57,208 nt of DNA from a virus (IMGVR_UViG_3300013093_000054:1-57208); one strand, 5' to 3'. Shown: positions 2,260 through 46,581, counted from the first letter of the stretch. The notes: generated from the letters alone by a model not told the origin. Numbers and translations: made by a program.

Positions 2260-2961
2260 ATGAGCACCGATATGGTCTTCTACGTTTACGAGCATTGGCG
2301 ATTAGATCGCGATGAATGCTTTTACGTAGGTAAGGGCCATGGTAAGCGCGCTTATTCTATTAAAAACAGAAATCAGCATTGGAACAATATTGTTTTAAAG
2401 CTGGAGCGCATCGGATCGGGATACGAAATTAGGTTAGTTGCTACAGGGCTTTCCGAACAAGACGCCTTTTCGCTTGAAAAGGAAAGAATTTCTTTTTGGC
2501 GAGATCTTGTAGATTTAGCTAATATCTGCGATGGCGGAGAAGGCGTATCTGGATTAAAGCATTCTGAAGAAACTAAAAAACTTTGGAGTGAAAAAAGAAA
2601 AGGGTGTCCTGTTTCTATTGAGGGGCGAATTAAACGTAGCAAAACTATGAAGGGTGTTCCAAAATCTAAGGAACATGCGGCCAAAGCTGGAGCGGCCGGT
2701 GGTTTTGCCCGAAAAGGTATGAAACATAGCGAAGAACACAAAAAAGCAATTGGTTCTTCTTTGTTAAACAGTGAAAAATTTAAATCAGCCAATAAAGCTA
2801 GAAGAAAAACAATTATATGTTTAAATTCAGGACAGATATTTAGTGGGTTAGATGAAGCAGCAATAGCAAATAATGTTTCAAGATATGCCGTCCATGATTG
2901 TTGCTCTGGAAGAACAAAGCATACAAAAGATGGCTTAGTCTTTAAATACGAGGACGCATAA
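2260..2961 (+). CDS. Free-standing GIY-YIG homing endonuclease with NUMOD3/NUMOD1-type DNA-binding repeats
   Basis: FYVYEH...FYVGKG...R GIY-YIG motif; KHSEETKK and KHSEEHKK NUMOD3 repeats; C-terminal IICLNSGQIF..LDEAA...CCSGR HTH. Confidence 0.85.
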   Translation: MSTDMVFYVYEHWRLDRDECFYVGKGHGKRAYSIKNRNQHWNNIVLKLERIGSGYEIRLVATGLSEQDAFSLEKERISFWRDLVDLANICDGGEGVSGLKHSEETKKLWSEKRKGCPVSIEGRIKRSKTMKGVPKSKEHAAKAGAAGGFARKGMKHSEEHKKAIGSSLLNSEKFKSANKARRKTIICLNSGQIFSGLDEAAIANNVSRYAVHDCCSGRTKHTKDGLVFKYEDA

Positions 2962-3647
2962 TGGCAACCTCAAACACTTACTCTTTCAACCCTGATCTTG
3001 GCAGCATTACCTTATATGCTTTTAATTTAGTAGGCATCCGAAATACTGCTTTATTGCAAGAACATCTCGACTCTGCTCGCATGGCGACAAACATGATTTT
3101 GTCGCGCTGGAGCTCTGAAGGCGTTAACACATGGGCTGTTGATCTTGTGACTGTGCCTCTTGTTCAAGGGCAGTCAACCTACCCTGTAGATAGCAATACG
3201 ATCGTGATGCTGGATACTTATATCACCGTCGTCAATGGCGGCGTGTCGACTGATCGTATCATCCTTCCGATCTCAAGGACGGAATATGCGTCATATCCAA
3301 ATAAGCAGCAGCAAGGCTTCCCGACGACGTTCTGGATGGACCGCTTGCTTAATCCGACGGTTACAATCTGGCCTGTCCCAGATGGTAATGAAGCTTATCT
3401 GAAGTATTACCGCCTGATACAATTGCAGGACGCCAATCTTGCCGGTAATCAGCAATTAGATATTCCGTATTACTTTTTGGACGCTATGGCCTATGCTTTG
3501 GCGCTCCGTTTGGCTCAGATATGGGCCCCTGATAAGGTGGCGATGCTGAAGCCATTTGCTGACGAAAGCTACCAGATTGCTGTTGCGCAGAATATCGAAA
3601 CTTCTGCTTTCTATGTGTCGCCTACGATCTCTAGCTATTTCAGATAA
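2961..3647 (+). CDS. Probable head-tail adaptor / tail tubular protein
   Basis: Layout typical of podophage adaptor proteins (ISRTEYASYPNK..QGFPT, IWPVPD, ALALRLA), size 228 aa, position in the structural block. Confidence 0.6.
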   Translation: MATSNTYSFNPDLGSITLYAFNLVGIRNTALLQEHLDSARMATNMILSRWSSEGVNTWAVDLVTVPLVQGQSTYPVDSNTIVMLDTYITVVNGGVSTDRIILPISRTEYASYPNKQQQGFPTTFWMDRLLNPTVTIWPVPDGNEAYLKYYRLIQLQDANLAGNQQLDIPYYFLDAMAYALALRLAQIWAPDKVAMLKPFADESYQIAVAQNIETSAFYVSPTISSYFR

Positions 3648-4347: not shown

Positions 4348-5217
4348 ATGGCAACCGTCCCCTATACATTCGCAAATACCCCAGGCGGCGCGTCAATTCC
4401 ACTTGCTGAGTTGGATGCCAACTTTGCGGCCATTGGCGTTCAAACAGGACCCACAGGGCCTACAGGACCAGTTGGGCCGCAAGGTGCTCCTTCTAATGTT
4501 ACGGGGCCTACGGGATACACTGGGGCTATAGGGGCTACAGGCGCAACTGGACCAACTGGCCCAAATGGCACATCTAGTGTTTTATTTAATTATAATTCAA
4601 ATACATCAAACACAAATGTAAGTATTTATCCTGGTGACGGTAATATTTGTTGGAATAATTCTGCCCAAATATCTTCGACGGCATTAACCATCTCTAGCAG
4701 AGATACCAATGGTGCCGATATTGACTTATTTTTATCAAGTTTAGCTTCAGGTCAACAAATTGTAATCCAACAACAAACCAGCAGTTCAAATTATCAAACA
4801 TTTCAAATTACATCTGCGCCAACAGAGGTAAACCCAGGAACATTAACATCGTATTGGGCATTTCCTGTTTCTCTGGTTAATAGTGGTGGAACAGGGACGT
4901 CTAATTTTGCTAATGCTTTACCAATATTTATCGCTATTACCACGTTGCAACCCGGCCCAACCGGGCCAACCGGGCCCGCCGGGGCTGCTGGGTTAAGCTC
5001 TTACATGGAGCAATTAAATATATCGACTACAAATATATTGCCGCCATTAACTAATTCATATGTGACGGGGTCGTTTATTATGTTTGTAAATGGCCAAGGG
5101 TTTGTTCCCACAGGAGCAACTCCCCCGTTTTCTGTATCTGGAACGGCGATTACTTGGCTTTCGACGGTATGGAGTGTTAATCCTGGCGACTTAGTCGTCG
5201 TTATCTATACATATTAG
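4348..5217 (+). CDS. Short collagen-repeat fibre protein
   Basis: GPT/GAT/GYT triplets flank a globular domain paralogous to one in 6883..12651; N-terminal [10 protein letters not shown]. Confidence 0.75.
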
Positions 5218-6882: not shown

Positions 6883-9800
6883 ATGTCTAACGTCCAGATC
6901 CCAAATCTTCCTGTTGCTATTTCTCTTAATGGCACAGAAGAACTTGAAGCAGTTCAGGCTGGGACGTCTGTTCGCGTTACTTCTTTGCAAATTGCTGGGT
7001 TGGCACCAGGCCCAACTGGCGCTCCTGGTCCATTTGGACCAACCGGACCTACTGGATATACGGGGTATACAGGGCCAGGAATAACAGGTCCTCAAGGCCC
7101 AACAGGCCGAACTGGTCCAACAGGATATACAGGTTATACGGGCTATACCGGTGATACAGGTGCGCCATCTTTTGTAACTGGCCCGACTGGGTATACCGGT
7201 TATACTGGTCCCACAGGATATACTGGTTCACCTGGAACTAGCATAATTTATCAAGGCACAGTTGCAAACTCGACATTATTGCCACCTCAACCGCAGCCTG
7301 TTGGTTACGCTTATGTTGCGCAAGATACGGGTCATCTTTGGATATCTACTGGTAGTGTATGGTCTGATGCTGGCCCTGTTGTAACCAACTATACCGGTGC
7401 CACTGGCTATACAGGTTATACGGGATATACTGGACCCACTGGGTATACCGGCTATACAGGAAGCATTGGCGCAACTGGCTATACTGGTCCAACAGGTTAT
7501 ACAGGCCCAACTGGCTATACAGGTCCCACCGGATTTACTGGTTATACAGGATTTACCGGTCCAACTGGGTATACTGGAGATACAGGTCCTACTGGTTACA
7601 CAGGTTATACAGGCGCAGCTTCGACTGTAACAGGTCCAACTGGTTATACTGGATATACTGGATATACAGGATACACTGGTGATACTGGGCCAACTGGATA
7701 TACCGGATATACGGGATATACAGGATATACTGGTGATACCGGTCCGACTGGTTATACTGGGTATACGGGTGAAACTGGTCCAACAGGTTATACTGGGTAT
7801 ACAGGAGAAACCGGTCCCGCTTCTGACGTTACGGGCCCAACAGGTTATACGGGTTACACTGGTTATACTGGCTACACAGGCGCTGCTTCTGATGTAACTG
7901 GTCCGACTGGTTACACAGGATATACTGGATACACCGGAGACTTCGGTCCCACTGGTTATACTGGTTATACTGGGGAAACCGGCCCAACGGGTTATACTGG
8001 ATATACAGGTGAAACTGGCCCTACTGGTTACACAGGATATACGGGATACACTGGGGACACAGGCGCTCCGTCTGATGTCACAGGACCAACTGGTTATACT
8101 GGTTATACTGGCCCAACAGGCTACACAGGCGATACAGGCGCTCCTTCTGATGTTACAGGGCCAACTGGCTATACTGGCTATACAGGTATGGCTGGTAGTG
8201 GGATTCAATATCTTGGCACTGTTAATGGATTCACAAACTTACCTGGATATCCTAGTTCATATCTAGGGGCTCAAGGCGATGCTTATGTAGATACTGTTAC
8301 TCAAGATCTTTGGGTTTGGAACGGACTTACTTGGGTAAATAACGGTCCTTTTGCTTCAATTACAGGACCCACTGGCCAAACTGGCCCAACAGGGTATACG
8401 GGCGATATCGGACCTACTGGCTATACTGGATACACTGGAGATATCGGACCAACTGGTTATACCGGTTATACGGGTGACACAGGTCCAACAGGATATACTG
8501 GATATACAGGCGATATTGGTCCAACAGGTTATACTGGTTATACCGGGGCAACCGGCCCAACTGGATATACAGGATCAATTGGACCAGCCGGTTCTTCTGC
8601 TACATCTTTTGGCTATATTGCTAATACGACTATCCAGTCTGGAGATCCTGGGACTGGTGACGTTCTATGGAACAACACAGCTCAGATTTCTGCTACATCT
8701 ATTAATGTAAGCACAACTGATGGGGCGAGCGCGGATATTAGCGTTTATCTGTCTCTCTTGCAGCAAGGGCAGACGCTTGTCCTTCAAGATTCAGCCGTTG
8801 CAACATCTTGGCAAGCATTTACTGTTTCTGCTGCTACGACGGATAATACGACATATTGGACGATTCCGGTTACTTATGTAAGTAGCAGCGGGGCCGCAAC
8901 AACTAACTTTGCCAATGCTACATCTTTAATTTTTGCTGTCGCTAGTGGCGCAATTGGCCCTCAAGGACCGCAGGGTGTAACTGGTGCAACCGGAGATACT
9001 GGCCCAACTGGCTATACTGGTTATACAGGTATTCAAGGCATTCAGGGTAATGTTGGCCCAACTGGTTATACGGGATATACGGGCCCGCAAGGAAATGCTG
9101 GCACTGTTGGAGATACCGGACCTACTGGATATACAGGTTATACTGGGTATACTGGAGATACAGGTCCTACTGGTTACACAGGTTATACAGGCGCAGCTTC
9201 TACTGTAACTGGCCCAACTGGCTATACAGGCTATACAGGTGCGCAAGGTGCAACTGGCTATACAGGCTACACAGGCGTAGGCGACACTGGTCCAACTGGT
9301 TACACTGGCCCACAAGGAGCCACTGGCTATACCGGGTATACTGGCGATCAAGGCGCTACTGGTTATACAGGCTACACTGGTCCAACTGGGTATACTGGCT
9401 ATACGGGTTATACGGGCGATACAGGACCGCAAGGTGCTACAGGTTATACTGGTTATACGGGAGCTGCGTCTAACGTAACCGGCCCAACAGGCTACACGGG
9501 CTACACTGGCCCTCAAGGTGGCGGCATTGTTTATAAAGGCACTGTAACTGATTCCACTCAGTTAACAGTTGTTGACCCAACGCCTTCTGTTGGCGATGCT
9601 TATATCACGCTTGATAACCAGCATCTTTGGGTATGGAATGGCGTTAGCTGGGTAGATAACGGCGCAATTACAACAACTGGCCCAACTGGCGCTACTGGTT
9701 ATACGGGGCCAACTGGTTATACGGGATATACAGGTTATACGGGCTACACAGGATACACTGGTGCTGCTTCTACTGTAACAGGCCCAACAGGCTACACTGG

Positions 9801-12651
9801 TTATACAGGGCCAATTGGTGCAACAGGTTATACCGGTTATACGGGCGATACAGGTTATACGGGCCCTCAAGGGGCCACTGGCTATACTGGTTACACGGGA
9901 CCTCAAGGGGCGACTGGTTATACTGGTTACACAGGCCCGGTTGGCCCAACAGGATACACAGGCTATACTGGGTATACAGGTTACACAGGCACAACTGGTT
10001 ATACAGGTTATACGGGCTATACCGGTTACACAGGTATCCAAGGACCAACTGGACCAGGTGGCGCTGTCGCTTATTGGGGTTCGTTCTGGGATACAACAAC
10101 CCAGACAATCGCTAGCACGACAACTGCTTATCCGATTACGTTCAATTCTTTTGATCCTAACAGTAACCAAGTTACTATTGTATCAGGAAGCCAAATCACA
10201 TTTGCGCAGGCTGGAACATATAATATTCAATTTTCGATACAGTTTGCCAATACTGATAGCGCTCAGATTTGGAATGCCAATACATGGCTGCGCAAAAACG
10301 GCGTAAATATTCCAGATTCAAACAGCTACTGGACGATAACGAGCAAGCATGGCGGCACAAATGGTCAGATAGTTGGCGCTGCTAACTTCATTGTTGAGGT
10401 CACAGCTGGTCAATATATTGAACTTTACTGGCAGGCAGAAAGCACATCTGTCATCTTGGAAACTGTCCCTGCTGGAACGACCCCAACAACGCCAGTAAGC
10501 CCTAGCGTTATTTTGACAGCTACGCCAATCGTTTCAACGATTATTGGGCCAACTGGTTATACGGGCTATACGGGATACACTGGCTATACAGGCGCAGCAT
10601 CTACTGTAACCGGTCCAACTGGTTATACAGGGTTCACCGGCCCTCAAGGCCCAACTGGATACACTGGTTATACAGGACCTCAAGGCGCTACTGGTTACAC
10701 TGGTTACACAGGTCCTCAAGGAGCTACTGGTTATACGGGTTATACTGGGGCCATAGGCCCAACAGGATATACTGGGTATACAGGCCCACAGGGCCCAACT
10801 GGTTACACTGGGTATACGGGGCCAATTGGTGCGACAGGCTATACAGGCTACACAGGCTACACAGGCCCAACTGGCTATACGGGCTATACAGGCGATATTG
10901 GTCCGACTGGATACACAGGATATACTGGGCCCGGTATTACAGGTCCAACTGGCTATACTGGCTACACAGGTCCAGGCATTACTGGACCGACTGGTTATAC
11001 TGGCTACACTGGTTATACGGGACCAGGTGTAACGGGCCCAACTGGTTATACTGGTTATACTGGCTACACTGGGCCTCAAGGCGCTACTGGCTATACTGGA
11101 TATACCGGCGCTACTGGCCCAACTGGCTACACTGGTTATACGGGACCAGGTGTAACTGGACCAACTGGTTATACTGGTTACACCGGGTATACTGGTTACA
11201 CAGGCCCGGGCGTAACGGGACCAACCGGATATACTGGCTATACTGGTTACACAGGATACACTGGTTACACAGGCCCACAGTTAATAACGATTAATTCAAC
11301 GCCAATTGGAAGTGGCACGTCTGGTCGTATTCTTTATGACAATGCTGGCACTGTAGGCGAGCTTGTTATACCGCTTTCTATCTCAAATGGCGGAACAAAT
11401 AACTCATCTGCTTATACTGCTGGATCTGTTATATTTTCTAATGGCACTTCATTAACCCAGGATAATGCAACTTTCTTTTGGGATGACACGAATACGCAAT
11501 TGTCAGTTGGAACTAATGTAACAGCTACTACGCCAGCGAATATTCAGCTGCAAATATTTAAAGACGCATTAATTAATGGCATGACTGTCGGTCTTGGAAC
11601 TGCGCAGCTAACGACAAATACCGCAGTTGGCTATCAAACACTTTTAGGTGTGACAACAGGAGCTTCCAACACAGCTGTTGGTTATCAGGTTCTTAAAGTA
11701 AATACTATTGGAACTCAGAATACGGGTGTTGGAAACCTTGTTCTATCTGCCAATACGACAGGAAACTACAACGCTGCTGTCGGTCAGGCTTGTCTGTTTA
11801 AGAATACGACCGGATCTCAAAATTCAGCATTAGGTCAAGGTTGTCTTTTCAATAATACCACAGGTGCCAGTAATTCTGCGATTGGTGGGTCTGCGTTATT
11901 CAACAATTCTACAGGCTCTAACAACACAGCCCTTGGCCAAGCGGCTATGAACACTAATACCACGGGGGCCACAAATACAGCTGTTGGCACGTCGTCTCTC
12001 TATTCTAATACAATTGGAACAAACAACTGCGCCGTTGGTTATCAGGCTCTTTATTTTAACACTACCGGAACACCCAACACAGGCGTTGGAACGTTAGCCC
12101 TTAGAGCAAACCAGACTGGAACAAATAACGTCGCTGTTGGTGATAGTGCATTAACAGCATGCACTGGAAATCAAAATACATCTCTTGGTTCCAGCGCTGG
12201 TTCTTCGGTTACGAGTGGTTCAAATTTAACAATAATTGGCTATAATGCCCAAGCAACATCTGCGACTGCTACTAACGAAATCACTCTTGGAAATTCGTCA
12301 GTTGCAACTCTACGTTGTCAAACTACAACTATTACATCTCTTTCTGACGCAAGGGATAAAACTGAAATAAGAGTTTTACTGGCTGGAATTAATTTTATAA
12401 AAACACTTAAGCCTGTGTCGTTTATATGGTCAATGCGCGATGGAGGTAAGGTTGGTATAGAAGATTCTGGTTTTATTGCTCAAGATTTACTTGAGTCCCA
12501 AAATATTACTGGAATTAAAATTCCTGGTCTTGTTTACGATGTAAATCCAGATAGACTCGAGGCTTCTTACGGCAAGCTTATACCTGTATTAGTAAAGGCA
12601 GTTAAAGAGCTGATCGAAGAAATTGATGCCTTAAAAGGGAAAGTTGGCTGA
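6883..12651 (+). CDS. Giant collagen-like (Gly-Tyr-Thr/Gly-Pro-Thr) fibre protein with C-terminal beta-roll repeats and intramolecular chaperone (peptidase S74-like)
   Basis: Six G-X-T blocks separated by globular domains; BclA-C/C1q-like domain ([13 protein letters not shown]...[12 protein letters not shown]); 14-aa NTAVG..L..NTTG repeats; SDARDKTEI...GFIAQDL...LVKAVKEL chaperone signature. Confidence 0.85.
7009..11280 (+). repeat. Coding 9-bp-period collagen repeat tracts (GGN TAY ACN / GGN CCN ACN)
   Basis: Visible directly as degenerate ggttatact/ggcccaact units; synonymous positions are highly varied. Confidence 0.95.
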
Positions 12652-12946
12652 TATGTCTATTAAAAAAACAATAAAAGCAGCGCGCCCGACCGTCAACTCT
12701 GTTTCCGGATATGTTTTAAGTTGGGATGTTGATATTACTTTAAGAGAAGGTAGCTTTGAATATAATTACAACTATTCAAAAGATGTTGCTAATTTAAATA
12801 AAATACCATCTGATTTCTCTGAACCAGAAGTTTTAGGATATATGCCAGAAGGTCTGGAAGATGTATTTAAACACCACAAAGAATTTTTGGGTGGAAATAA
12901 TTCTTCTGAAACAATTATTGTCGATGATTTTACGTTTAGCAATTAA
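12644..12946 (+). CDS. Hypothetical protein (possible fibre assembly/accessory)
   Basis: 100-aa ORF overlapping the collagen gene stop. Confidence 0.6.
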
Positions 12947-12955
12947 TAGGAGTAA

Positions 12956-13627
12956 ATTGAAATTCGCACCGTTCTTCTTTCAGCGCCATCTTATGACGGC
13001 AAAGTAAACGTATGGCACTGCACGTCTTTAACTGAAACGGTAAAAATAGGTATATCAAAAAATATTAACATTGTGGCTGTTTATATGTCTTACGATGCCT
13101 TAGTTCAAAGGGCTCGTAACGATATATTTAAACTAGCATATGATAATGATGTTGATGATCTGGTTTTTATCGATTGCGATCAAGATTGGCAACCGGAAGA
13201 TTTTTTTAAGCTTCTTTCACATGATGTCCCAATTGTTGCCGCACCAGTCATAAAAAAATCTGACGACCCTCAATATAATGTAAAATTATTAGGAAATTAT
13301 ATTATAAATGAAAAAGGGTTGGTTGAGGTAGACGGAGTTGGCACTGGATTTATGAGAATAAGAAAAGATGCTATTAAAAAAATGTGGTCTGCCTCAAGTG
13401 AATATCGTGAAAGACATAAGGAAGATTCGTCTCGTATGGTATTTGAAGTAAAAGTTATGAATGGGGAAATCTGGGCAGAAGACATTGTTTTTTGTGATAA
13501 ATGGATTAAATTGGGCGGTAAGGTATATATTGACCCATCCATTAATTGCGGCCATTCAGGTGAAAAAAGATGGGTAGGGAATTTTTCGTCTTGGATCAAG
13601 ACCTTAAACTTAAAAGGAGGGGTGTAA
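12956..13627 (+). CDS. GT-A fold glycosyltransferase (GT2-like); start codon uncertain
   Basis: RARN..., FIDCD (DxD), GVGTGFMRI, EDIVFC and CGH motifs. The frame stays open upstream of the called GTG (13073), encoding IRTVLLSAPSYDGKV, back to ATT at 12956/12962 behind an AGGAG RBS. Confidence 0.75.
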   Translation: MEIRTVLLSAPSYDGKVNVWHCTSLTETVKIGISKNINIVAVYMSYDALVQRARNDIFKLAYDNDVDDLVFIDCDQDWQPEDFFKLLSHDVPIVAAPVIKKSDDPQYNVKLLGNYIINEKGLVEVDGVGTGFMRIRKDAIKKMWSASSEYRERHKEDSSRMVFEVKVMNGEIWAEDIVFCDKWIKLGGKVYIDPSINCGHSGEKRWVGNFSSWIKTLNLKGGV

Positions 13628-13628
13628 A

Positions 13629-13817
13629 ATGGAAAACGAAATTATCAAGCTGGAGTTAACACTAGGTCAGGTTAACCACATTTTGGCTGTGTTAGGTGAG
13701 GCATCTTTTGTAAAAGCCGCAGACCCCGTAAACTGGATACGCGAGCAGGCGATTCCGCAGCATGCGGAAATAGCTAAGAAATATCCTGCTGAAGAAATAG
13801 CGCAAGCAGCAGAATAA
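13629..13817 (+). CDS. Small hypothetical protein
   Basis: 62-aa ORF with GGAGG RBS, in operon. Confidence 0.65.
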   Translation: MENEIIKLELTLGQVNHILAVLGEASFVKAADPVNWIREQAIPQHAEIAKKYPAEEIAQAAE

Positions 13818-13851
13818 ATATAAATTCGCATAAGAGAGGAAGGGTCTCGTT

Positions 13852-14487
13852 ATGCATACATCGGCGTATAATCATGCGCAGCGTTTTTACGACTGCTATA
13901 ACGGGGCTTTCCCTGATGGGTTTAAGGTAATTGAAATTGGTTCTCAAGACGTCAATGGCTCTTTGCGGCCTATTTTTGAAAGAGACTGCGACTATACGGG
14001 CGTAGACTTTGTGGCTGGTAAGGGCGTAGATCTTGTCTTAACCGACCCATACAAACTGCCTCTTCCAGACAAATGCGCAGATATCGTTGTTTCAAGCTCA
14101 TGTTTTGAACATTCAGAAATGTTTTGGCTGACGTTCCTAGAGATCATGCGCATATTAAAGCCGCATGGTTTGTTTTATCTAAATGTTCCATCCAACGGTA
14201 TTTATCATACTTACCCCGTTGACTGCTGGCGGTTCTTTCCAGACAGCGGAAAGGCGCTCGTAACATGGGCCAAGCGCAATGGAATAAACGCAGCTCTTCT
14301 TGAATCCTATATTGGCTTCAAAGAAGGTGAAATGATTTGGAACGATTTTACGGCTATTTTTCTTAAAGACGAAAAGAATATAGAAAAACATAAAAAGCGC
14401 ATTCTTAGCGTCCTGAAAGATTTCCATAACGGATATGTTTATGAAAATCCTGAGATTATGAACCGCGTTTATTGGCACGATAAATGA
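13852..14487 (+). CDS. Class I SAM-dependent methyltransferase (type 11-like)
   Basis: VIEIGSQDVNG motif I; YTGVD; DIVVSSSCFEH; RILKPHG; YPVDCWRF. Confidence 0.85.
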   Translation: MHTSAYNHAQRFYDCYNGAFPDGFKVIEIGSQDVNGSLRPIFERDCDYTGVDFVAGKGVDLVLTDPYKLPLPDKCADIVVSSSCFEHSEMFWLTFLEIMRILKPHGLFYLNVPSNGIYHTYPVDCWRFFPDSGKALVTWAKRNGINAALLESYIGFKEGEMIWNDFTAIFLKDEKNIEKHKKRILSVLKDFHNGYVYENPEIMNRVYWHDK

Positions 14488-15092
14488 CTCCGATACTCGT
14501 ATGCACGGTTACGGGGCGTAGCCTTCCAGTTCTTGAAGCGAGCGTTAAAGCTTATTGCTCGGACGTTTCGTTGATCGCGCATCACGTTGATCGGTCAACT
14601 TTTGGTCAATCGTATAACACCGCATTAGATGAGGCCTTTAAACAATACGATGAAGTTATTATCGCAAATGACGATGTTGTTTTGACGCCATCTACATATA
14701 CGACTTTACTTGAAGATGTGGCCGCGTTAAAATCAGAGCATGGCGATAAGGTAGGTATAGTTGGCGCTAGGTCTGATTGCGTTCGAGAAGCGCAAAATAT
14801 TAAAGAGAATCTGCCAGAAGAAGTTTTCTCAACGCTGTATGTATCCCCATTATTCGCTTGGATTCCAAAGATCGTTTTTGATATTACGCGCTTCCCGCAT
14901 ACAAACTGGTTTAGCGACGATATGATTTGTATGGATTTGAATTATGCTGGCTTTACCAATTGGGTGTCTCGGGCGTATGTCCATCATGCCGGATCTCAGA
15001 CGGTCGGCAATAATACATGGGAAATGTATTTACAGGCCATAGACTGGATAGAAAAGAATAGACCAGAACGTCTACATAGGTTTAAACGATGA
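14484..15092 (+). CDS. GT2-like glycosyltransferase
   Basis: FGQSYN, IIANDDVVL (NDD), FSDD and YVHHAGSQT motifs. Confidence 0.8.
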   Translation: MTPILVCTVTGRSLPVLEASVKAYCSDVSLIAHHVDRSTFGQSYNTALDEAFKQYDEVIIANDDVVLTPSTYTTLLEDVAALKSEHGDKVGIVGARSDCVREAQNIKENLPEEVFSTLYVSPLFAWIPKIVFDITRFPHTNWFSDDMICMDLNYAGFTNWVSRAYVHHAGSQTVGNNTWEMYLQAIDWIEKNRPERLHRFKR

Positions 15093-15943
15093 AAATTATA
15101 GATGCTTTTACGTTTTATAATAATGTAGACATATTAAAAATGAGGCTCCAGCTTCATTTTGATCATGTGGACGAATTTTATATTTGCGAATCTGACCATA
15201 CATATTCCGGCAGACCAAAAGAATTTATTTTAGAGCAGCATTTGCATGAGATAAATCCCTGGATAGATAAGGTTCGATATATAAAATATCATGCCGACCC
15301 AAGTGGATTAGATTTTTCTCAGGAATTTAAAGACGAAATTCTCAATCTTAGCAATCCCGGCTGGATTATGGAGTTCAGGCAACGCAACCAACTAAAAGAA
15401 CATATCCAAGATTTTGGCGATAATGATGTTATTGCAATTTGCGATATTGATGAATTTATTAGCCATGATGTTTTTAACTATATTAGGCAAAATGGTCTCG
15501 GGCCAGATGAGTTACGTTTAAATCTCGTCATGCATCACTATTACATGAATTGCATACAACCTGGAAGGATATGGACACAACCATTTATGTGCAAGGGGTC
15601 CAGATTTCGGCAGATAGATGACGTATCCTTTCACCGGCACTGCGTAGGTATGTATCATTGGTGGCCTAATGCTGGCTGGCATTTTTCCAACCTTGGCGGC
15701 TATGAAGCCATAATGGATAAGATGCTTGCCACTTGTCATACAGAGTTTATTACCAATGGCGTAAATGACCCTGAATATATAAAAAATTGTATGAAATATG
15801 GGATCTTACCTAACATAAAAAAACCAACGCCATCTCTGGCTACATGTGAATTGGCTTTTGTGAAATTAGACGCATATCCCCCCTATTTGCGTAAAATTAT
15901 GCTAGATAATCCAAAATATATTGTTACCGATTTGACGGTTTAA
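15089..15943 (+). CDS. GT17-family (beta-1,4-GlcNAc transferase/MGAT3-like) glycosyltransferase
   Basis: KIIDAFTFYNNVDIL.MRL...VDEFYICESDHTYSGRPK; EFRQRN; CDIDE; AGWHFS. Confidence 0.85.
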   Translation: MKIIDAFTFYNNVDILKMRLQLHFDHVDEFYICESDHTYSGRPKEFILEQHLHEINPWIDKVRYIKYHADPSGLDFSQEFKDEILNLSNPGWIMEFRQRNQLKEHIQDFGDNDVIAICDIDEFISHDVFNYIRQNGLGPDELRLNLVMHHYYMNCIQPGRIWTQPFMCKGSRFRQIDDVSFHRHCVGMYHWWPNAGWHFSNLGGYEAIMDKMLATCHTEFITNGVNDPEYIKNCMKYGILPNIKKPTPSLATCELAFVKLDAYPPYLRKIMLDNPKYIVTDLTV

Positions 15944-15956
15944 GGAAGGGAAAACA

Positions 15957-17066
15957 ATGGAAACTATAGAATTAACGGCGACGGAAATTATCCCGGAAAA
16001 GAAAAAGCTGAAGATATGCGTCTACGGTATCTCAAAAAACGAAGAAATGTTTATTCAGCGATGGGCTGATTCTGCTAGGCAGGCAGACCTTATTCTCCTT
16101 GCTGATACAGGCAGCGACGACGATACCGTCAAGCTGGCAAAGGAAAGCGGCGTCCAAGTCCATCATATCCACATCAAGCCGTGGCGCTTTGACCATGCCA
16201 GAAACGCCGCTCTTTGCCTGATCCCAGGCGACTTTGATGTCTGCGTCAGCCTAGACATTGACGAAATCTTGGAGCCCGGTTGGCGCGAAGAAATTGAGCG
16301 CCTATGGGAACCAGATACGACCCGTATGCGCTATATCTTTGACTGGGGGATGGGTAAGAAATTTTACCATGTCAAAATTCATAGCCGCCATAGCCACTTC
16401 TGGAAACATGCCTGCCACGAAGTTCCTGTCACAGACATGCGGACTCCAGAAAAGTTCTGTTTTACCGAGAAGCAGATGGTGACGCATTACCCAGATCATA
16501 CCAAAAGCCGGGCGCAATATTTTGGCATCCTAAAGGTTGCTGTGGACGAAGACCCAAGCTGCCCCCGCAACGCTTTTTACTGGGCCCGTGAGCTTTCCTA
16601 CTACAGCAAATGGGAAGAGGCGCTAGTAGCGCTTAAAAAATACCTTGATATGCCTAGCGCAACATGGAACTGCGAGCGATGCTACGCTTACATAACCATG
16701 GCAAAATGTTATGGAGCGCTTGGAAATCCTGTTGAAGAAGAAAAATCGCTCCTCAAGGCGGCTATGGAAGCAGGCGAAACGCGGGAACCGTGGGTGGCAA
16801 TGGCGGACTTAATGTATCGACAAAACCGCTGGGCTGAATGCTTTGCTTACGCCATGCGGGCGGTAAATATTACCTACCGGGCCAACAATTATACGGAAGA
16901 TCCAAATTGCTGGGGATGGCGTCCGCATGACTTTGCCGCTATCGCAGCTTTCCGGTTGGGATTGAAGGAAATAAGTATCCAACAGGGGCAGATTGCGGTA
17001 GAATTGGAGCCGGAAGATCAACGCCTAAAAGATAATCTTTTGTGGTATATTGGTGAAAAGTCATGA
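15957..17066 (+). CDS. GT2 + TPR glycosyltransferase (protein O-glycosyltransferase architecture)
   Basis: ICVYGISKNEE, DTGSDD.T, WRFDHARNAAL, SLDIDE and HE motifs, followed by helical TPR-like repeats. Confidence 0.85.
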   Translation: METIELTATEIIPEKKKLKICVYGISKNEEMFIQRWADSARQADLILLADTGSDDDTVKLAKESGVQVHHIHIKPWRFDHARNAALCLIPGDFDVCVSLDIDEILEPGWREEIERLWEPDTTRMRYIFDWGMGKKFYHVKIHSRHSHFWKHACHEVPVTDMRTPEKFCFTEKQMVTHYPDHTKSRAQYFGILKVAVDEDPSCPRNAFYWARELSYYSKWEEALVALKKYLDMPSATWNCERCYAYITMAKCYGALGNPVEEEKSLLKAAMEAGETREPWVAMADLMYRQNRWAECFAYAMRAVNITYRANNYTEDPNCWGWRPHDFAAIAAFRLGLKEISIQQGQIAVELEPEDQRLKDNLLWYIGEKS

Positions 17067-17326
17067 TGGAGACAGGGATGGAGCCGCAAACAGTTATTAA
17101 TATTGTGGCAGGCACCGTCCTGATGGTAGCCGGGTGGCTTTTTAGGGAGCTTTGGCAAGCTGTCAAAGCTCTCCAAGCCGACCTTCGTAAGATAGAAGTA
17201 GACTTGCCATCGAATTATATCCGAAAAGACGAATTTGGCGAGGGGATGCGTGAAATAAAAGAAATGCTCGCTAAGATATTCGACAAATTAGACGGTAAAG
17301 TAGACAAACATTGGGGCGATAAATGA
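17063..17326 (+). CDS. Probable holin-like membrane protein (single TM + coiled coil)
   Basis: N-terminal TM (IVAGTVLMVAGWLF), directly upstream of and overlapping the endolysin start. Confidence 0.5.
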   Translation: MMETGMEPQTVINIVAGTVLMVAGWLFRELWQAVKALQADLRKIEVDLPSNYIRKDEFGEGMREIKEMLAKIFDKLDGKVDKHWGDK

Positions 17327-17793
17327 CCTGGCCCCTTCAGTCCGAATGTTTAAAAATGTTTGGCAACCCCTATGCGCCCGGCTGGGGGAATACGCACATT
17401 GTCCATATTAATTGCCCGTGGCAGCTCTATATGGGGCCGCTGCATATTCCGTATATTAAAATAAATAAGATTGCCGCCGAGTCTTTAACTCGTGTCTTAA
17501 ACCATGTCTGGGATGAATGCGGAAAGGACCCAGACAAAATACACGCCATCCATGCCGACCAGTTCTCAGGGGACTGGGTCATCCGTCAGGCGCGCGGCCT
17601 GAAGATGATATCAATGCATAGCTATGGCCTAGCAATAGATTGGGACGCTCCCCACAACCAGCTAGGTTCAAGAACGCATTTTTTTACGGCTGATAACCCA
17701 CTCATTAAGGCTTTTCTTGATGAGGGATGGATTTGGGGAGGCCAATGGAGCAGACCGGACGCAATGCACGTTCAAGCGGCGAGGGTTGGTTAA
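17323..17793 (+). CDS. Endolysin, M15-family Zn peptidase
   Basis: SMHSYGLAID (SxHxxGxAxD) and WGGQW..PDAMHVQ motifs. Confidence 0.85.
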   Translation: MTWPLQSECLKMFGNPYAPGWGNTHIVHINCPWQLYMGPLHIPYIKINKIAAESLTRVLNHVWDECGKDPDKIHAIHADQFSGDWVIRQARGLKMISMHSYGLAIDWDAPHNQLGSRTHFFTADNPLIKAFLDEGWIWGGQWSRPDAMHVQAARVG

Positions 17794-17816
17794 ATAGGCA
17801 AACGGTAGGGGCGCTT

Positions 17817-17978
17817 GTGGCGGCCATATCATACAGTATCGTATTAATAAGTTTGGCAGCCCTTGCAGGCTGCACTCAGATAGAAGGTGATGGATTTTCT
17901 AACAATGGCCATGAGTATGGTCCTGTTAGATGCGTTAAGGCGAAAGATAACGTTCTTCGTTGTTATACGATTAAATAG
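17817..17978 (+). CDS. Small lipoprotein
   Basis: Likely GTG start at 17817; hydrophobic stretch ending in lipobox LAGC; mature part has a further Cys pair. Confidence 0.5.
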   Translation: MAAISYSIVLISLAALAGCTQIEGDGFSNNGHEYGPVRCVKAKDNVLRCYTIK

Positions 17979-17987
17979 GAGACAGAC

Positions 17988-18161
17988 ATGGGTTCAATTG
18001 GTTCTTTTGTAGTTGCCAAACTGCGTGAAGGCTCAACCTGGGCCGGTATCGCTACGCTGATTGCTGGCGCAAGCTTTATTCCTCATGCTCAAGAGATCGG
18101 TGCTTTGGTTCCAACTGTTGGCACGCTGGTAGCTGGCGTTTTGGCGATCTGGTTTAAATAA
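17988..18161 (+). CDS. Probable holin (57 aa, 2 TM), absent from the ORF track
   Basis: AGGAG RBS; MGSIGSFVVAKLREGSTWAGIATLIAGASFIPHAQEIGALVPTVGTLVAGVLAIWFK; stop overlaps the next ATG (TAATG). Confidence 0.7.
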   Translation: MGSIGSFVVAKLREGSTWAGIATLIAGASFIPHAQEIGALVPTVGTLVAGVLAIWFK

Positions 18162-18400
18162 TGGTCGCTACAATCTTATCTCTTATCGGCGCGCTATTTA
18201 CGCTTGCCGGTAAGATATTTGATTGGTTAAACGCACAACAATTAATTGATGTCGGCAAGACGGCGCAGCAGGTTCAGGATTTAAAGGGGCAAGTAGATGC
18301 TGCACATGAGGCGCTTCAAGCCCGTCTGGATATTGAGCGCGATAGCATTGACAAGCCTGACAGCGTGTCAGTCGACGACGGGTTCAAGCGCCCTGACTGA
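18161..18400 (+). CDS. Probable i-spanin (Rz-like)
   Basis: N-terminal hydrophobic anchor plus helical region; overlapped by a lipoprotein gene in another frame. Confidence 0.6.
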   Translation: MVATILSLIGALFTLAGKIFDWLNAQQLIDVGKTAQQVQDLKGQVDAAHEALQARLDIERDSIDKPDSVSVDDGFKRPD

Positions 18401-18521
18401 TAGGCTGGCTTTTTGTGATGGGGCAAAACCTATTTATTGGTCAAAAAAAGATACGGACAAAACAATTTGGCAGGTGAAGGCGCATAACAATGTAGGCAAG
18501 GAAGCCTGCAACTGGAGATAG
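18297..18521 (+). CDS. Probable o-spanin lipoprotein (Rz1-like)
   Basis: MRRFK + hydrophobic stretch + LTAC lipobox; extra cysteines; overlaps the 3' half of the Rz-like gene. Confidence 0.7.
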   Translation: MLHMRRFKPVWILSAIALTSLTACQSTTGSSALTDRLAFCDGAKPIYWSKKDTDKTIWQVKAHNNVGKEACNWR

Positions 18522-18524: not shown

Positions 18525-19265
18525 ATGACTACTGGCCTTAGTTATGATGGATCTGTAGCAGGGACGACTTCGTATGTCGCTCAGATATCAACTATGGCCG
18601 TCGTTGATCCGACAGATCCAGCGTTTTTGACCATTTTACCACAAATGATAACTTATGCTGAAAATAGAATATATCGTGAAGTCGACTTTTTATTTACATC
18701 AATTTCTACAACTTCTTATGGATTAACTGTTGGTAGTCGTATTATTTCTGTTCCAGCAGGAACGCTAGTAGTCCCAGAGCAAATAAACGTCCTAACGCCA
18801 GCAGGGACAACTAATCCCGATGCGGCAACAAGAAACCCATTGCTGCCAACAACCAAAGAATATCTGGATGCGGTGTGGGGCAATTACGCCAATACTGGTT
18901 TGCCCGTCTATTGGTGCCCCTTTGACGACTATACCTTCTTGGTAGGGCCCTATCCAGATCAAAATTATACAGTAGAAATAGTAGGAACATATCGCCCTAA
19001 TAGCTTGTCGGCTTCTAATTTAACAACATTTATTAGCCTATATCTCCCCGATCTATTTATTATGGCATCAATGATATACGTCTCAGCATACCAAAGAAAT
19101 TTTTCAAGCGCTGCTGGCAACGATCCGCAAATGCCTGTTACTTATGAAACGCAATATCAGACGCTTCTCAAATCTGCCCTTAGCGAAGAGAATCGCAAAA
19201 AATTTGAGGCAGCAGCGTGGTCGTCTCAAGGTGTTTCTACTTCAGCTACGCCGACTAGAGGTTAA
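18525..19265 (+). CDS. Probable head-tail adaptor / tail tubular protein A-like
   Basis: ITYAENRIYRE, VGPYPDQNYTVEI and PDLFIMASM pattern of phage adaptor proteins; sits directly upstream of the nozzle-like gene. Confidence 0.6.
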   Translation: MTTGLSYDGSVAGTTSYVAQISTMAVVDPTDPAFLTILPQMITYAENRIYREVDFLFTSISTTSYGLTVGSRIISVPAGTLVVPEQINVLTPAGTTNPDAATRNPLLPTTKEYLDAVWGNYANTGLPVYWCPFDDYTFLVGPYPDQNYTVEIVGTYRPNSLSASNLTTFISLYLPDLFIMASMIYVSAYQRNFSSAAGNDPQMPVTYETQYQTLLKSALSEENRKKFEAAAWSSQGVSTSATPTRG

Positions 19266-23380: not shown

Positions 23381-26300
23381 ATGTGTGGTGGCGGCGGCAA
23401 AGGAACTGGTGGATATAACCCAATGGGTGGCCAGTGGGGCAATTTAACGCCTCAACAGCAGCAAACCACCACAGCATCTCCGCAGGCTATTGGTTGGTAT
23501 CAAGATGCTATGGCCAAGGCTCAACAGGCCGCTGCTACTCCTTGGCAAAATTATAGCACCGATCCTGCTGCGTTTGTTGCTCAACTAAATTCGCAGCAGC
23601 AAGCTGCACAGCAAGGAATAGCCGGTCAAGCTGCCGCTACTGCCCCGTTTGCACAAATGGGTGCAGGTATGCAGGCCGCAGCTGGTTTGGGCAATGCCGC
23701 TCAGATGGCTGGCTCTTATATGAGCCCTTTTATGCAGCAGGTTGTTTCACCTGTGCAGCAGGCTCTTCAACAACAGCAGGGACAACAACTAGCTCAACAG
23801 CAAGCAGACGCTATTAGCGGCGGAGCATTTGGCGGCGAGCGCGCTGGTTTGCAACGTGCAACCCTTCAGGGCCAGCAGGAGCTGGCTATGGGTCAGGCGT
23901 TAAGCCCTCTATATCAAACTGGCTATGGTCAAGCTCTAGGCGCGGCTCAAACAGACCTGGAGCGTCAATTACAAGCTGGTCAAGGATTATCTCAAGCTGG
24001 CCTTGCGGCACAACAAGCATCGTTAGGGGCTGGCACGCTTGGGCAGCAGACTCAGCAAGCTGGCCTATCCGCTTTATATAATCAGTGGCAGCAAGCACGT
24101 ATGTATCCGTATCAGCAAGCTCAATTCCTTGCTGGTATCGCTGGCGGTCTTGGTCCTCTTATGGGCCAGCAGTCATATCAGTCTCAGGCAACAAATCCTT
24201 TCGGCATGTTCCTAGCTGATGGCGGAGCTGTTGACGAAAACCGCATGGGCGGCGCTGTTACCAATGGCGGAGACTTTGCGCGTGGTGGGTATGCAACCAG
24301 AGGCGGCGTAGATGAAGATCCTCTGGCCATCCAAGAACAAATGTATAAAGATATTGAGAAACCGGTAGAAACTTCTCTTCCTACTGGCCAGGTTCAAGCT
24401 GCTCAAGGATTAAAGCCAGCAGATTTTGCTCCTACTCCAAAACAGGAATCTGCTCTTGATAAAGCCAGCAAAGTCGCTGGTTTGGCTAAAGAAGGCATTG
24501 GCGGCCTAAAAAATGCTTATGATTGGCTTACAGGTCCTACTAAAGTTACTGGAGCGGCAGGTAGCTTGGCTGTCCCAACATACGGCGGTGGCATTCTCGG
24601 AGGACTTGGGAGCACTCTTTCAGAAATAGGCAGTGGTATTGCGTCTTTTCTTCCGTTTGCTTTGAATGAAGGCGGTGTTGTTCCACGCGATGGTTATGCC
24701 GATCGTGGCGCTGTTGAACCAGATGACAGATCCGCCGATTATATGGCGCGCACCATGCTCAAAGAAGCAGGTGGAGAAGGTCCAGAAGGAATGGAGGCTG
24801 TAGGCCATGTGATCAGCAATAGGCTTGAAGCAGGGCGTTACGGCAAAGACATACCTTCGGTTGTAACAGCTCCTAAACAATTTTCTCCTTGGAATACTGA
24901 GGCGCGTGGCACTTCAGCAGATCCTCGTTTAGTTGATACTTCAAGTAAATCATATCAAAATGCACTTGGTCTTGCTCGCAAAGTGTTGGCAGGTGAAACT
25001 GAAGACCCAACGGGCGGAGCGACTCATTTTTATAATCCTAAACTTGCCAGTCCAAAATGGGGCGCAGGTATGGAAAACGCAATTCAACTTGGTCAACATA
25101 GGTTTGGTCGTGCTGATGCTGGTGCAGATCAAGCAGGTGTAGCTGCGGCTTTAAAGAGAGCTACTCCAGAGCAGCGCAAGATGATGGCGCTTGATACGTC
25201 TGATCGTAGCGGTGTAGCCGCAGCAGCGCCAGAAAATGATAGCATATTTAAAGAGGAAAACGTTCTTCCCGCTATTTCCGGTCTTGGCGCAGCGCTTGAA
25301 GGAATGGTTACGTCTCCAACTGTTGGTCTTGGGGGAGCTCTTCTTAGAGGCGCTGGCGCTGGCATGAAAGAAGGTGTGCGGTCTGCTCTTGAGGTTCCAA
25401 AAGTTAGAGCTGAAACTCTTGAGCGTCAACATCTGGCTCAAAAGGCCCTCGAAGAGGCCAGATACAGGGCGGCTGAAATACCTAAAGTTGGCGCTGAAAT
25501 TGGCGAGATTGGTGCAAGAACAGATCAAATCAAAGGCGCAACTGAAAAACTTGCTTCTGAAACGGTTGATAGCTCGATTCAGGTTAAGGATGGCAGAACG
25601 TTTATTCGTTACGTTGATCCTAATACTGGAACATATAACTGGATGCCATTCCAGGATTATTATGCGCTTGATCCTAGCAAACGGCCAATTGTCGATCCAC
25701 GAGCCGTTCAAAAAATTATTGTATCCGATCCGTCAAGTATTGTTACAAAGCCATCTCCCACAACAGCTGAAGGGAAACCTCAAACAGAAATATCTTCTGG
25801 GGCGGCTGGTTCTGGAGTAGGTTCTGGAGCAAAGCCTCAAACTTCAATTTCTACCAATCCAGAACAAGCAACTACAGCTTTTGAAATAACCAAAAACAAG
25901 GCTGGCTGGCCTTCTGAGCGTAGAAATTCTGAACCTGACTATTTCACGCCACAAGATGAAATAGCAAAAGGCATTCAGAACCAGAAACAATTAATTGTCC
26001 CATTGGCGGGAGCTTTGGCTGCTTTGCCACAGGATAAAAGTATTCTTGCTTCCGGTAAGGCACAGGAAATATTGAGTCCGGTTGCTGGTATTTTAAATAA
26101 CATAGCTGCTGTTGCTGGCTATCCTGGTCTTATCGTTGACCCTAAATCTCTTACAAGCCAAGAAGAGGTTAACAAGCTTGTTAATCAACTTCAGCAAGCC
26201 GCTACTACAGCTTCTCAGCAACATGCTTTTGCGGCTTTTAAAGAAATGGCTCAAGGAATACCAGGAATTACCAATTCTCCTGGTGGCCAAGCAAAGCTTA

Positions 26301-34081: not shown

Positions 34082-34274
34082 CTGTCTTTTCCTTTTTAAC
34101 TGGGTAAACCGTTATCTCTATTTCTGGATCTACAGGTTCACCTTCTCCCCGCCAAACATACAGGCTGGCGTAGCAGGCGTGTGGAAGCGGTAGATAAGAC
34201 TCAAACTCCCATCCTAATCTCTCAAAGTCTTTTTCCTTCGAGAAAGGCACATACCTGTAAAACTTCTCTGTCAT
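34074..34274 (-). CDS. Hypothetical protein
   Basis: 66-aa coupled ORF. Confidence 0.55.
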   Translation of the reverse strand: MTEKFYRYVPFSKEKDFERLGWEFESYLPLPHACYASLYVWRGEGEPVDPEIEITVYPVKKEKTDE

Positions 34275-34630: not shown

Positions 34631-34649
34631 CTCAACCTCAATAAAATAA

Positions 34650-34667
34650 GGGGGAGATATCTCCCCC
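34650..34667 (-). terminator. Perfect 18-bp palindrome, probable minus-strand terminator
   Basis: GGGGGAGATATCTCCCCC followed on the minus strand by TTATTTTATT. Confidence 0.55.
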
Positions 34668-34675
34668 ATAAAGTA

Positions 34676-46530: not shown

Positions 46531-46581
46531 GTCGTTGCCGTTGGCAGCTTAAATATCGATATTGAAATGGAAGGATCAGAT

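Follow-up and report, generated by a model that had tools for sequence, protein, structure and literature searches.

In Clostridioides difficile, the collagen-like protein BclA3 is the target of SgtA, an enzyme of 358 amino acids (aa) that combines a glycosyltransferase (GT) domain of the GT-A fold (residues 3-225) with four tetratricopeptide repeats (TPRs; residues 262-358) and that, in vitro, transfers N-acetylglucosamine (GlcNAc) in β-O linkage from UDP-GlcNAc to threonines of BclA3 collagen-repeat peptides (PMC7157674). The sgtA gene abuts bclA3, and the enzymes that extend and cap the glycan are described there as not known (PMC7157674). Here we analyze IMGVR_UViG_3300013093_000054:1-57208, a whole IMG/VR virus record (linear, 57,208 bp, about 91% complete by estimate) that comes from an uncultured lake phage and is referred to below, at its full length, as the window. 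Behind the gene for a collagen-like tail fiber dominated by Gly-Tyr-Thr triplets, the window encodes five enzymes, including a protein in which a predicted family 2 glycosyltransferase domain is followed by a putative TPR region (hereinafter GT2-TPR), and our favored interpretation, which we hold to be moderately likely, is that this phage module O-glycosylates its own collagen-like tail fiber.

The glycans of the spore-surface protein BclA include methylated sugars, and two further enzymes with a GT2 domain, SunS and ThuS, act on glycocin peptides. Collagen-like fibers are common in phages, and how they fold and remain stable without hydroxyproline is unsettled. The GT domain of GmaR puts GlcNAc on flagellin, and its TPR region has been proposed to bind the substrate (PMC9638930). 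Sugars of the BclA type are thought to aid the hydration network, and mimivirus modifies its own collagen-like proteins with a lysyl hydroxylase and a glycosyltransferase (PMC8968730). In Mycobacterium phages, glycans have been described on the capsid and the tail tube (Freeman et al. 2023, cited in PMC12619734). Phage glycosyltransferases are routinely read as modifiers of DNA or of the host surface, and a study of lake actinophages, in which a glycosyltransferase and collagen-like proteins occur in the same genomes, proposes DNA protection or a change of the cell wall (PMC10202952). In the limited literature collection that we searched, we found no paper describing the pairing of a phage collagen-like fiber with a GT2-TPR enzyme.

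A collagen-like tail fiber followed by five enzymes

The fiber gene and the five enzyme genes are the following:

6883..12651, + strand: collagen-like tail fiber, 1922 aa, with a C-terminal S74 intramolecular chaperone domain (Pfam Collagen and Peptidase_S74; PHROG tail-fiber families)
12962..13627, + strand: GT-A-fold glycosyltransferase-like protein (phrog_1574 at 1.2e-17; predicted fold; D-x-D-x-D motif)
13852..14487, + strand: predicted class I S-adenosylmethionine (SAM)-dependent methyltransferase, 211 aa (Methyltransf_11; phrog_32762 at 9.8e-19)
14484..15092, + strand: GT-A-fold glycosyltransferase-like protein, 202 aa (predicted fold; N-terminal domain of GT2-TPR in relatives)
15089..15943, + strand: predicted GT17-family glycosyltransferase, 284 aa (Glyco_transf_17, PF04724)
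15957..17066, + strand: GT2-TPR, predicted GT2 catalytic domain with C-terminal TPR, 369 aa (phrog_13126 at 2.8e-98; PDB sequence hits; Pfam families of relatives)

Counting Gly-X-Y in runs of at least four triplets, the fiber contains 313 triplets in 23 runs of 4-36 triplets, and the Y position is occupied by Thr in 250 of them (80%), which bears out an earlier note on this DNA that had described a 1922-aa fiber with about 300 triplets and Thr almost always in the third position. The X position is occupied by Tyr in 152 and by Pro in 86 of the 313 triplets; by type, there are 152 GYT and 58 GPT triplets, and the whole protein contains only 16 Lys residues. The Pfam Collagen family (PF01391) matches at 4.2e-109 (356.7 bits, cut-off 27.2), Peptidase_S74 matches residues 1821-1871 (28.6 bits, cut-off 22), and PHROG tail-fiber families match with E-values down to 4.8e-172. 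The triplets form six collagen blocks with globular interruptions of 51, 54, 116, 51 and 159 residues, and the last block is followed by a repeat-rich C-terminal domain of 456 residues. The fiber accordingly has the long uninterrupted Gly-X-Y runs and the trimerizing C-terminal domain of collagen triple-helix repeat proteins and phage collagen-like tail fibers. The DNA that encodes the repeats is degenerate, with 59-94% matches, and the 152 GYT triplets are encoded by 26 different 9-mers, which indicates that the periodicity is maintained at the protein level and is not that of a simple DNA repeat. Collagen rises by 0.286 nm per residue, so that the 939 collagen residues of the fiber correspond to a calculated triple-helix length of about 270 nm. 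Among bacterial collagens, the share of Thr at Y is 31.6% overall and 48.3% in those of Gram-positive bacteria (PMC8968730).

From the fiber to the endolysin, the genes form one tightly packed block on the same strand, in which neighbors overlap or lie at most 34 nt apart (successive junctions, counted from the fiber stop, of -8, +15, +1, +34, -4, -4, +13 and -4 nt), as the earlier note had claimed in speaking of short or overlapping gaps. The five enzymes sit between the fiber and the lysis genes, and the GT2-TPR gene, part of the operon that also holds the fiber gene, follows the latter at a distance of 3.3 kb. A scan for regulatory signals remained at chance level (32 promoter-like sites with 33.7 expected; 11 terminator-like sites with 12.0 expected).

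Sequence comparison assigns to GT2-TPR a predicted N-terminal catalytic domain of the GT-A/GT2 type with a DXD-type motif: D100, D102 and E103 are invariant across 30 aligned sequences. The Glycos_transf_2 score of the window protein is 23.1 bits (cut-off 23.3), and it rises to 32.3 bits in P0002, a relative with 90% identity; likewise, TPR_2 reaches 28.9 bits (cut-off 27) in P0002 and 43.9 bits in P0007, which is 69% identical, and the protein-atlas clusters of this family carry TPR families. Both parts of the GT2-TPR designation used in the earlier note pass in the 90%-identical relative; the window protein itself is under the cut-offs, its TPR part being putative. The nearest solved relatives by sequence are GmaR (1.2e-4), the ThuS-type structure 7msk (1.4e-3) and SunS (0.3-0.56); GT2-TPR falls outside the SunS equivalog family TIGR04195 (21 bits, cut-off 350). 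The enzyme has 2394 homologs at E<=0.001; a locus search with the single protein returned one relative, and a query with an alignment reached at least 525 IMG/VR loci.

Among the best 120 of the 2394 homologs, 56 are stand-alone proteins, 29 begin with a domain that corresponds to the complete 202-aa GT-A protein (in 2 more, to part of it), and 26 have an N-terminal extension of 150-200 aa that in 23 cases matches methyltransferase Pfam families; other N-terminal extensions were found in 4 and C-terminal extensions in 3. These fusions suggest that the 202-aa GT-A protein and a methyltransferase belong to the same pathway as GT2-TPR.

Association of GT2-TPR with threonine-rich collagens

The earlier note had set the co-occurrence of the enzymes with Thr-rich collagens as a test of its proposal, and GT2-TPR turned out to be tied to such collagens within its phage clade and in at least two unrelated lineages. 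In a first sample of 80 IMG/VR loci fetched by GT2-TPR, in which a collagen open reading frame (ORF) was defined as one with at least 20 triplets located upstream on the same strand, the gene order is kept (fiber genes, GT2-TPR, a small membrane protein, adaptor, and an 871-aa protein). An upstream collagen ORF is present in 14 of the 14 loci with at least 8 kb of upstream sequence, 12 of which have Thr in at least half of the Y positions, and in 21 of the 25 loci with at least 5 kb. The Y residues of these collagens include 2246 Thr versus 262 Ala, and in 13 of the 43 loci that have a collagen ORF, the distance between its stop and the GT2-TPR start is only -12 to +28 nt.

Because this sample is biased to the enzyme, 80 loci were fetched again by the adaptor gene. 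In the 12 of these with at least 9 kb upstream, both genes are present in 7, the enzyme without collagen in 2, collagen without the enzyme in 1, and neither in 2. Among 28 whole adaptor-anchored records, 19 encode GT2-TPR and 11 have a Pfam Collagen match: collagen is present in 10 of the 19 records with GT2-TPR and in 1 of the 9 without it. Eight of the other nine GT2-TPR records are cut off about 2 kb or less before the enzyme, so that collagen is found in 10 of the 11 that are not cut there. The association has a Fisher p of 0.0009 for the 20 informative records and of 0.049 for all 28, uncorrected for kinship. Neither the enzyme nor collagen was found in two genomes that are near-complete (99% and 80%); the contigs are fragments, so that the absences are soft. 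In a tree of 112 adaptor proteins, the enzyme state changes at least 9 times and the collagen state at least 6 times, and in about three of four independent contrasts the collagen state shifts with that of the enzyme, in none against it.

The sole collagen-bearing record without GT2-TPR (L152) has in the same slot a gene for a GT-B-type protein (Glycos_transf_1; L152:7175-8254), located behind a Thr-rich collagen gene of 117 triplets and before lysozyme and holin genes. In L109, L110 and L122, which have neither the enzyme nor collagen, no glycosyltransferase family was detected among the ORFs scanned. One apparent case of the enzyme without collagen, L078, was dropped: its near-identical sister L021 has collagen 8.1 kb upstream, and L078 ends after 7.3 kb.

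The best match of GT2-TPR in a phage isolate (40% identity) is in the 129 kb genome of Actinomycetia phage DSL-LC01. There, the enzyme gene is preceded on its own strand, at a distance of 3 kb, by two GPT collagen genes, in which Thr takes the Y position of 22 of 34 and of 28 of 46 triplets. A scan of prokaryotes, with one genome per species, yielded 200 GT2-TPR relatives, of which 73 are distant (36-44% identity) and come mostly from assemblies of gut 'uncultured Bacilli' or Tenericutes. In three of four distant loci scanned, the neighbors are cellular genes (RNA polymerase subunit, ABC transporter, queuosine-synthesis-like enzyme, guanylate kinase), so that the distant loci looked at appear to be cellular. 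Among the 62 distant loci with at least 1 kb upstream, a collagen-like ORF lies directly upstream of the enzyme in 19 at a threshold of at least 15 triplets and in 23 at a threshold of at least 8, and in the gut Bacilli-type loci, 847 of 1134 triplets have Thr at Y. For non-overlapping ORFs, an upstream collagen neighbor accompanies 23 of 72 enzyme genes, compared with 3 of the 729 remaining genes of these loci (Fisher p 5e-23, uncorrected for kinship). The same enzyme-collagen pair is found in a Sphingomicrobium assembly (L230).

Thus, an enzyme gene of this type located beside a Gly-X-Thr-rich collagen gene, the arrangement of sgtA, is found in the window, in its relatives, in DSL-LC01 and in gut Bacilli. 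The comparison supports the view that the GT2-TPR family travels with Thr-rich collagen genes and that the enzymes of the cluster would share one pathway. In nine gut Bacilli loci without a collagen neighbor (L201, L204, L210, L216, L218, L221, L222, L224 and L229), an ORF of 64-85 aa with 21-29% Ser+Thr lies directly upstream of the enzyme. By analogy with glycocins, the small-peptide substrates of such enzymes, these ORFs may encode a small peptide substrate.

Accessory enzymes of the window and of its relatives

The earlier note had listed four glycosyltransferases and a methyltransferase; all four glycosyltransferases find support, two of them through the predicted fold only. For the first GT-A protein, the fold stood. 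In the list of ORFs, its gene begins at GTG 13073, but the stop-to-stop frame is open from 12956, and 906 homologs span 95-100% of that frame; these homologs align to the upstream part as well, so that the true frame is longer than 13073-13627. The Met start of 29 homologs aligns to ATT 12962, nine bases after AGGAG, and the gene probably starts at this codon, which would be either an ATT start codon or the product of a recent loss of the start codon. The AlphaFold model (predicted local distance difference test score, pLDDT, 90.7) has a GT-A fold, and D73, D75 and D77 are invariant in the alignment of homologs. No Pfam match (E up to 10) and no useful PDB sequence match was found, either with the single sequence or with a profile.

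The best Foldseek match of this model is A197 of the virus STIV (1e-9), followed by COLGALT1 and LH3 with TM-scores of about 0.5. Residues 312-365 of P0007, the 69%-identical relative of GT2-TPR, have a faint match to TPR_P4H, the TPR domain with which collagen prolyl 4-hydroxylase binds its peptide substrate (E 4.3e-4, below threshold). We set aside both the COLGALT1/LH3 and the TPR_P4H resemblances as evidence of a collagen substrate, since they reflect the general GT-A and TPR folds.

The product of 14484..15092 had been labeled GT2. Its AlphaFold2 model (pLDDT 89.4) has the GT-A fold, and the 335 Foldseek matches at E<=0.001 are, among those listed, all nucleotide-sugar enzymes, including majastridin with UDP, GnT-I, POMGNT1 and TarS/TarP; residues D63 and D64 are invariant in the alignment. 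Searches gave no Pfam match (E up to 10) and PDB sequence matches at E 0.32 or worse; given that the assignment comes from the fold, a GT-A-fold protein is supported and the GT2 family label is not established. NCBIfam yielded nothing useful for the cluster proteins.

The methyltransferase named in the earlier note is a predicted member of the class I SAM methyltransferases by its Methyltransf_11 score of 40.1 bits (cut-off 21.2). It was found in 1 of the 80 related loci, and the methyltransferases fused to GT2-TPR in relatives gave no phmmer match to it at 1e-3, that is, they belong to a different lineage. The GT17 assignment was also sustained: the 284-aa protein matches Glyco_transf_17 at 56.4 bits (cut-off 26) over model positions 74-277 of 348, and is by this comparison a predicted member of GT17, a family in which the animal enzyme performs β-1,4-GlcNAc transfer. 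All 120 best listed homologs, the window's own included, carry PF04724; 15 contigs encode an identical protein, and the closest of the further homologs, one of them on a phage-sized contig, show 69-77% identity. The family occurs in 1 of 50,697 records of sequenced phages; GT17-like genes are present in some close metagenomic relatives, were found in none of the 80 related loci and, by pattern search, nowhere in IMG/VR, and a PDB sequence search with the protein returned 0 hits.

The cluster changes its composition from one relative to the next, as seen in 59 ORFs scanned between the collagen and GT2-TPR genes of relatives (with one exception, the GT2-TPR gene of L002 itself). The closest relative, L002, whose enzyme is 83% identical, has no GT17 gene; its cluster includes a gene of the GDP-mannose-4,6-dehydratase/epimerase family (1e-50) and a Methyltransf_24 gene, and its GT2-TPR has an extra N-terminal domain. 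2-Oxoglutarate (2OG)-Fe(II) oxygenases form the enzyme class of the collagen hydroxylases. Such oxygenases (PF13759; in L021 also a faint match to PF13640) are encoded between GPT collagens and GT2-TPR in L005 (2449-3087), L016 (8549-9181) and L021 (6035-6640), and are candidates for collagen hydroxylases; no such gene was found in the window, whose fiber has Tyr and not Pro at half of the X positions. Other relatives have genes for Gly_rich_2, DUF7483-SPRY and Laminin_G_3 fiber proteins in this interval. By this comparison, GT2-TPR is the constant part of the predicted module, and the remaining genes are variable.

Proposed function and alternative interpretations

We propose that the fiber chains would be made in the cytoplasm late in infection, alongside the five soluble enzymes of the same operon. 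The TPR part of GT2-TPR would hold unfolded or folding Gly-X-Thr chains, and its GT-A domain would attach the first sugar to Thr at Y, in the manner of SgtA with BclA3. Elongation with sugars from the nucleotide-sugar pools of the host would fall to the two small GT-A proteins and the GT17 enzyme, and methylation of a sugar to the SAM methyltransferase. The product would be a fiber with a triple helix of about 270 nm and up to about 250 glycan sites. Thr at Y is the presumed acceptor by analogy with SgtA, and the first step is tentatively assigned to GT2-TPR on the grounds that this part of the module is conserved and bears the TPR. The order of the other enzymes, the sugars used and the benefit, be it helix stability without hydroxyproline, protection or receptor contact, are likewise conjectural. 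Stabilization of the helix would be an appealing role, as the module has no hydroxylase (no 2OG oxygenase was found among the window ORFs scanned) and Pro occupies only 86 of the 313 X positions. The reliance on host donors assumed in the earlier note agrees with the window, where no sugar-nucleotide gene was found (48 ORFs compared with Pfam); the relative L002 carries the GDP-mannose-4,6-dehydratase-like gene. Taken together, the glyco-collagen idea in that note is partly supported, namely in the tie of the enzyme cluster to the collagen, through co-occurrence, the predicted SgtA-like architecture and the fusions; the priming, extending and capping roles and the effects on the fiber that it names are conjectural.

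Several observations weigh against a collagen substrate. Thr at Y is common among bacterial collagens without known glycosylation (PMC8968730). The window GT2-TPR is just below the Pfam GT2 cut-off, and its TPR_2 match is faint (E 0.065). In the phage clade the two genes adjoin, so that joint gain and loss may reflect swapping of the fiber block and not function, and a sign test on the four independent contrasts is not significant (median p 0.25), four pairs being too few to reach significance. A true exception in the clade is L027, where the 6.9 kb of sequence in front of GT2-TPR contain no collagen ORF with 20 or more triplets; its enzyme is fused to a methyltransferase and is encoded beside S74 fibers. 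About two thirds of the distant loci have no collagen neighbor (39 of 62 with fewer than 8 triplets). Finally, the jumbo phages PaBG, Lu11 and Alexandra encode a homolog with 27-31% identity that is flanked by a DNA ligase gene and head genes and has no annotated collagen in its vicinity.

Some of these observations would fit an alternative in which the targets of the enzymes are different proteins of the virion, for example the capsid, other fibers or Gly-rich fiber proteins, and collagen is a mere neighbor because the enzymes end the fiber module. The precedent is the capsid and tail-tube glycans of Mycobacterium phages (PMC12619734), and the placement of the distant jumbo-phage homolog beside head genes, the intervening Gly_rich_2, DUF7483-SPRY and Laminin_G_3 fiber genes of many relatives, and the S74 fibers of L027 in the absence of a long collagen ORF all point the same way. 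However, the collagen pairing recurs outside phages, in 23 of 72 apparently chromosomal gut Bacilli cases, as well as in the unrelated actinophage DSL-LC01, and the collagen-less members of the clade lack the enzyme and yet keep the capsid and other fibers. We therefore regard this alternative as improbable.

The same low standing befits the possibility that the enzymes alter an envelope glycan of the host (lipopolysaccharide, capsule or another polymer) late in infection and thereby perhaps block superinfection or prevent progeny from adhering to debris. Published work usually interprets phage glycosyltransferases in this way (PMC10202952, PMC12619734), the PHROGs label of the enzyme family is 'moron ... 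beta-1,4-glycosyltransferase', and the lack of sugar-nucleotide genes in the Pfam-scanned part of the window implies reliance on host sugar pools. None of the five enzymes has a membrane segment, however: their top 19-residue hydropathy is 0.88-1.46 on a simple scale, whereas p87, p83 and p79, the membrane proteins of the lysis region, reach 1.66-2.33, and no Gtr-type membrane-embedded transferase, flippase or polymerase partner is present in the window. The TPR-bearing relatives of known function act on proteins or peptides, and modification of the envelope leaves unexplained both the collagen tie across lineages and the absence of the enzyme from collagen-less clade members.

It is much harder to maintain that the cluster is recently acquired, partly decayed cargo without a role in the virion, an explanation to which we assign very little weight. 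The first GT-A gene indeed has no ATG, GTG or TTG start, the Pfam scores of the window GT2 and TPR regions are under the cut-offs, and GT17 is rare in phages (the single record mentioned above). Yet every frame is open, the genes overlap tightly, the catalytic-type motifs are invariant in the alignments, the GT17 protein is conserved across contigs, and the 90%-identical relatives of GT2-TPR pass Pfam. Glycosylation of the phage DNA as an evasion of restriction, well known for phage glycosyltransferases (PMC12619734) and proposed for those of lake actinophages (PMC10202952), is the least credible explanation, because no hydroxymethylase, thymidylate-synthase-like or other DNA-hypermodification gene was found in the ORFs scanned (48 against Pfam, 33 against PHROGs) of this 91%-complete record, the genes belong to a late fiber-lysis operon away from the replication genes, and neither the TPR domain nor the collagen tie would be explained.

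O-glycosylation of the collagen-like fiber could be part of a broader scheme, which we put forward tentatively and consider rather less than probable. Tailed phages would run their own pathway of collagen maturation, in which a conserved SgtA-like primer that reads Gly-X-Thr chains is combined with fast-swapping accessories (GT-A proteins, GT17, methyltransferases, sugar dehydratases and, in relatives, 2OG-Fe(II) oxygenases) to give each lineage its own fiber glycan. This glycan might replace hydroxyproline as the helix stabilizer, enabling a Pro-poor Gly-Tyr-Thr helix of the length calculated above, and might act as a fiber 'serotype' in host recognition or in escape from enzymes of hosts or grazers. 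If O-glycosylation of the fiber is borne out, the widespread GT2-TPR family would be the missing collagen-modifying activity of phages, fiber glycans would form a hidden layer of variation in phage host range and stability, and the enzymes could serve to produce glycosylated recombinant collagens; the idea would be directly testable with two cloned genes.

Other genes of the locus and of the phage genome

Three further genes lie in or near the cluster:

4348..5217, + strand: short collagen-like fiber protein, 289 aa, with GPT/GAT triplets (Pfam Collagen at E 9.5e-6, under the cut-off; PHROG tail-fiber families)
12644..12946, + strand: 100-aa protein, its start overlapping the fiber stop by 8 nt
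13629..13817, + strand: 62-aa protein, conserved in 5 of 80 related loci

The short fiber protein is a possible second substrate. The 100-aa protein has no Pfam (E up to 10), PHROG or NCBIfam match and was not found in the 80 related loci; the 62-aa protein and a 535-aa protein have no Pfam match even at E up to 10.

The structural and replication genes of the record include a large terminase, an SU10-type portal, two SU10-type adaptors and a primase-helicase, and the lysis block behind the enzyme cluster comprises an M15 endolysin together with membrane and lipobox proteins. The cluster DNA gave a single 94-nt match against 50,697 phage records, with no isolate resembling it at the DNA level. 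Other features of the record are:

2961-3647 and 18525-19265, + strand: two SU10_adaptor-family genes (family assignment)
17063-17326 and 18161-18400: membrane proteins of the lysis block
17727-17978 and 18297-18521, + strand: small ORFs of the lysis block with lipobox-like motifs (…LAGC…, …LTAC…)
23381-26656, + strand: protein of 1091 aa containing an internal Hydrolase_2 domain (cell-wall hydrolase)
34274-34669, - strand: protein with a DnaA C-terminal helix-turn-helix (HTH) domain (domain match)
40158-41291, + strand: MT-A70 adenine DNA methyltransferase with a ParB-like N-terminal part (PHROG hits)
46567-46911, + strand: GapR-like DNA-binding protein (PF10073, 7e-31)
55807-56235, + strand: Cpn10/GroES-like gene beside the head genes

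The collagen-less relative L122 likewise has a second adaptor copy, upstream of its fiber genes (L122:5930-6613). The lipobox ORFs and membrane proteins suggest a spanin/holin-like set and a Gram-negative host; GapR is typical of Alphaproteobacteria and their phages, so that the host is perhaps an alphaproteobacterium. The Hydrolase_2 protein is probably an ejected virion protein, and the MT-A70 enzyme is the sole DNA-modifying enzyme seen in the record.

Comparison with known systems

The module resembles the collagen modification of mimivirus and of COLGALT1/LH3 in the fold matches of the first GT-A protein and in the 2OG-Fe(II) oxygenases that occupy the same slot in relatives; in those systems, however, hydroxylysine is glycosylated, whereas the fiber described here is Lys-poor and the match is that of the general GT-A fold. 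With mycobacteriophages it shares the location of phage glycosyltransferases in a structural operon, where they decorate virion proteins, but the targets there are the C-termini of capsid and tail-tube subunits and not collagen repeats. Listeria GmaR, Bacillus SunS and ThuS have the succession of a GT2 domain and TPR-like helices that is predicted for GT2-TPR and act on protein or peptides, although the matches to GT2-TPR are weak (E 1e-4 to 0.56) and cover the GT domain only. BclA of B. anthracis and B. cereus is, like the fiber, a Thr-rich collagen-like filament, built of GPT triplets, which in BclA is O-glycosylated, but it belongs to the exosporium on the spore surface of a Gram-positive bacterium. 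The SgtA/BclA3 pair, as published, shares with the phage locus a soluble enzyme of about 360 aa with an N-terminal GT-A/GT2 domain, followed by TPRs in SgtA and by a putative TPR region in the phage protein, encoded beside a Thr-rich collagen gene. It differs in that the presumed phage substrate is a 1922-aa tail fiber with half of its triplets being Gly-Tyr-Thr, that the phage enzyme gene lies behind the collagen gene, whereas sgtA lies in front, and that four further enzymes are encoded alongside. Judged by analogy of architecture, the closest known system is C. difficile SgtA with BclA3.

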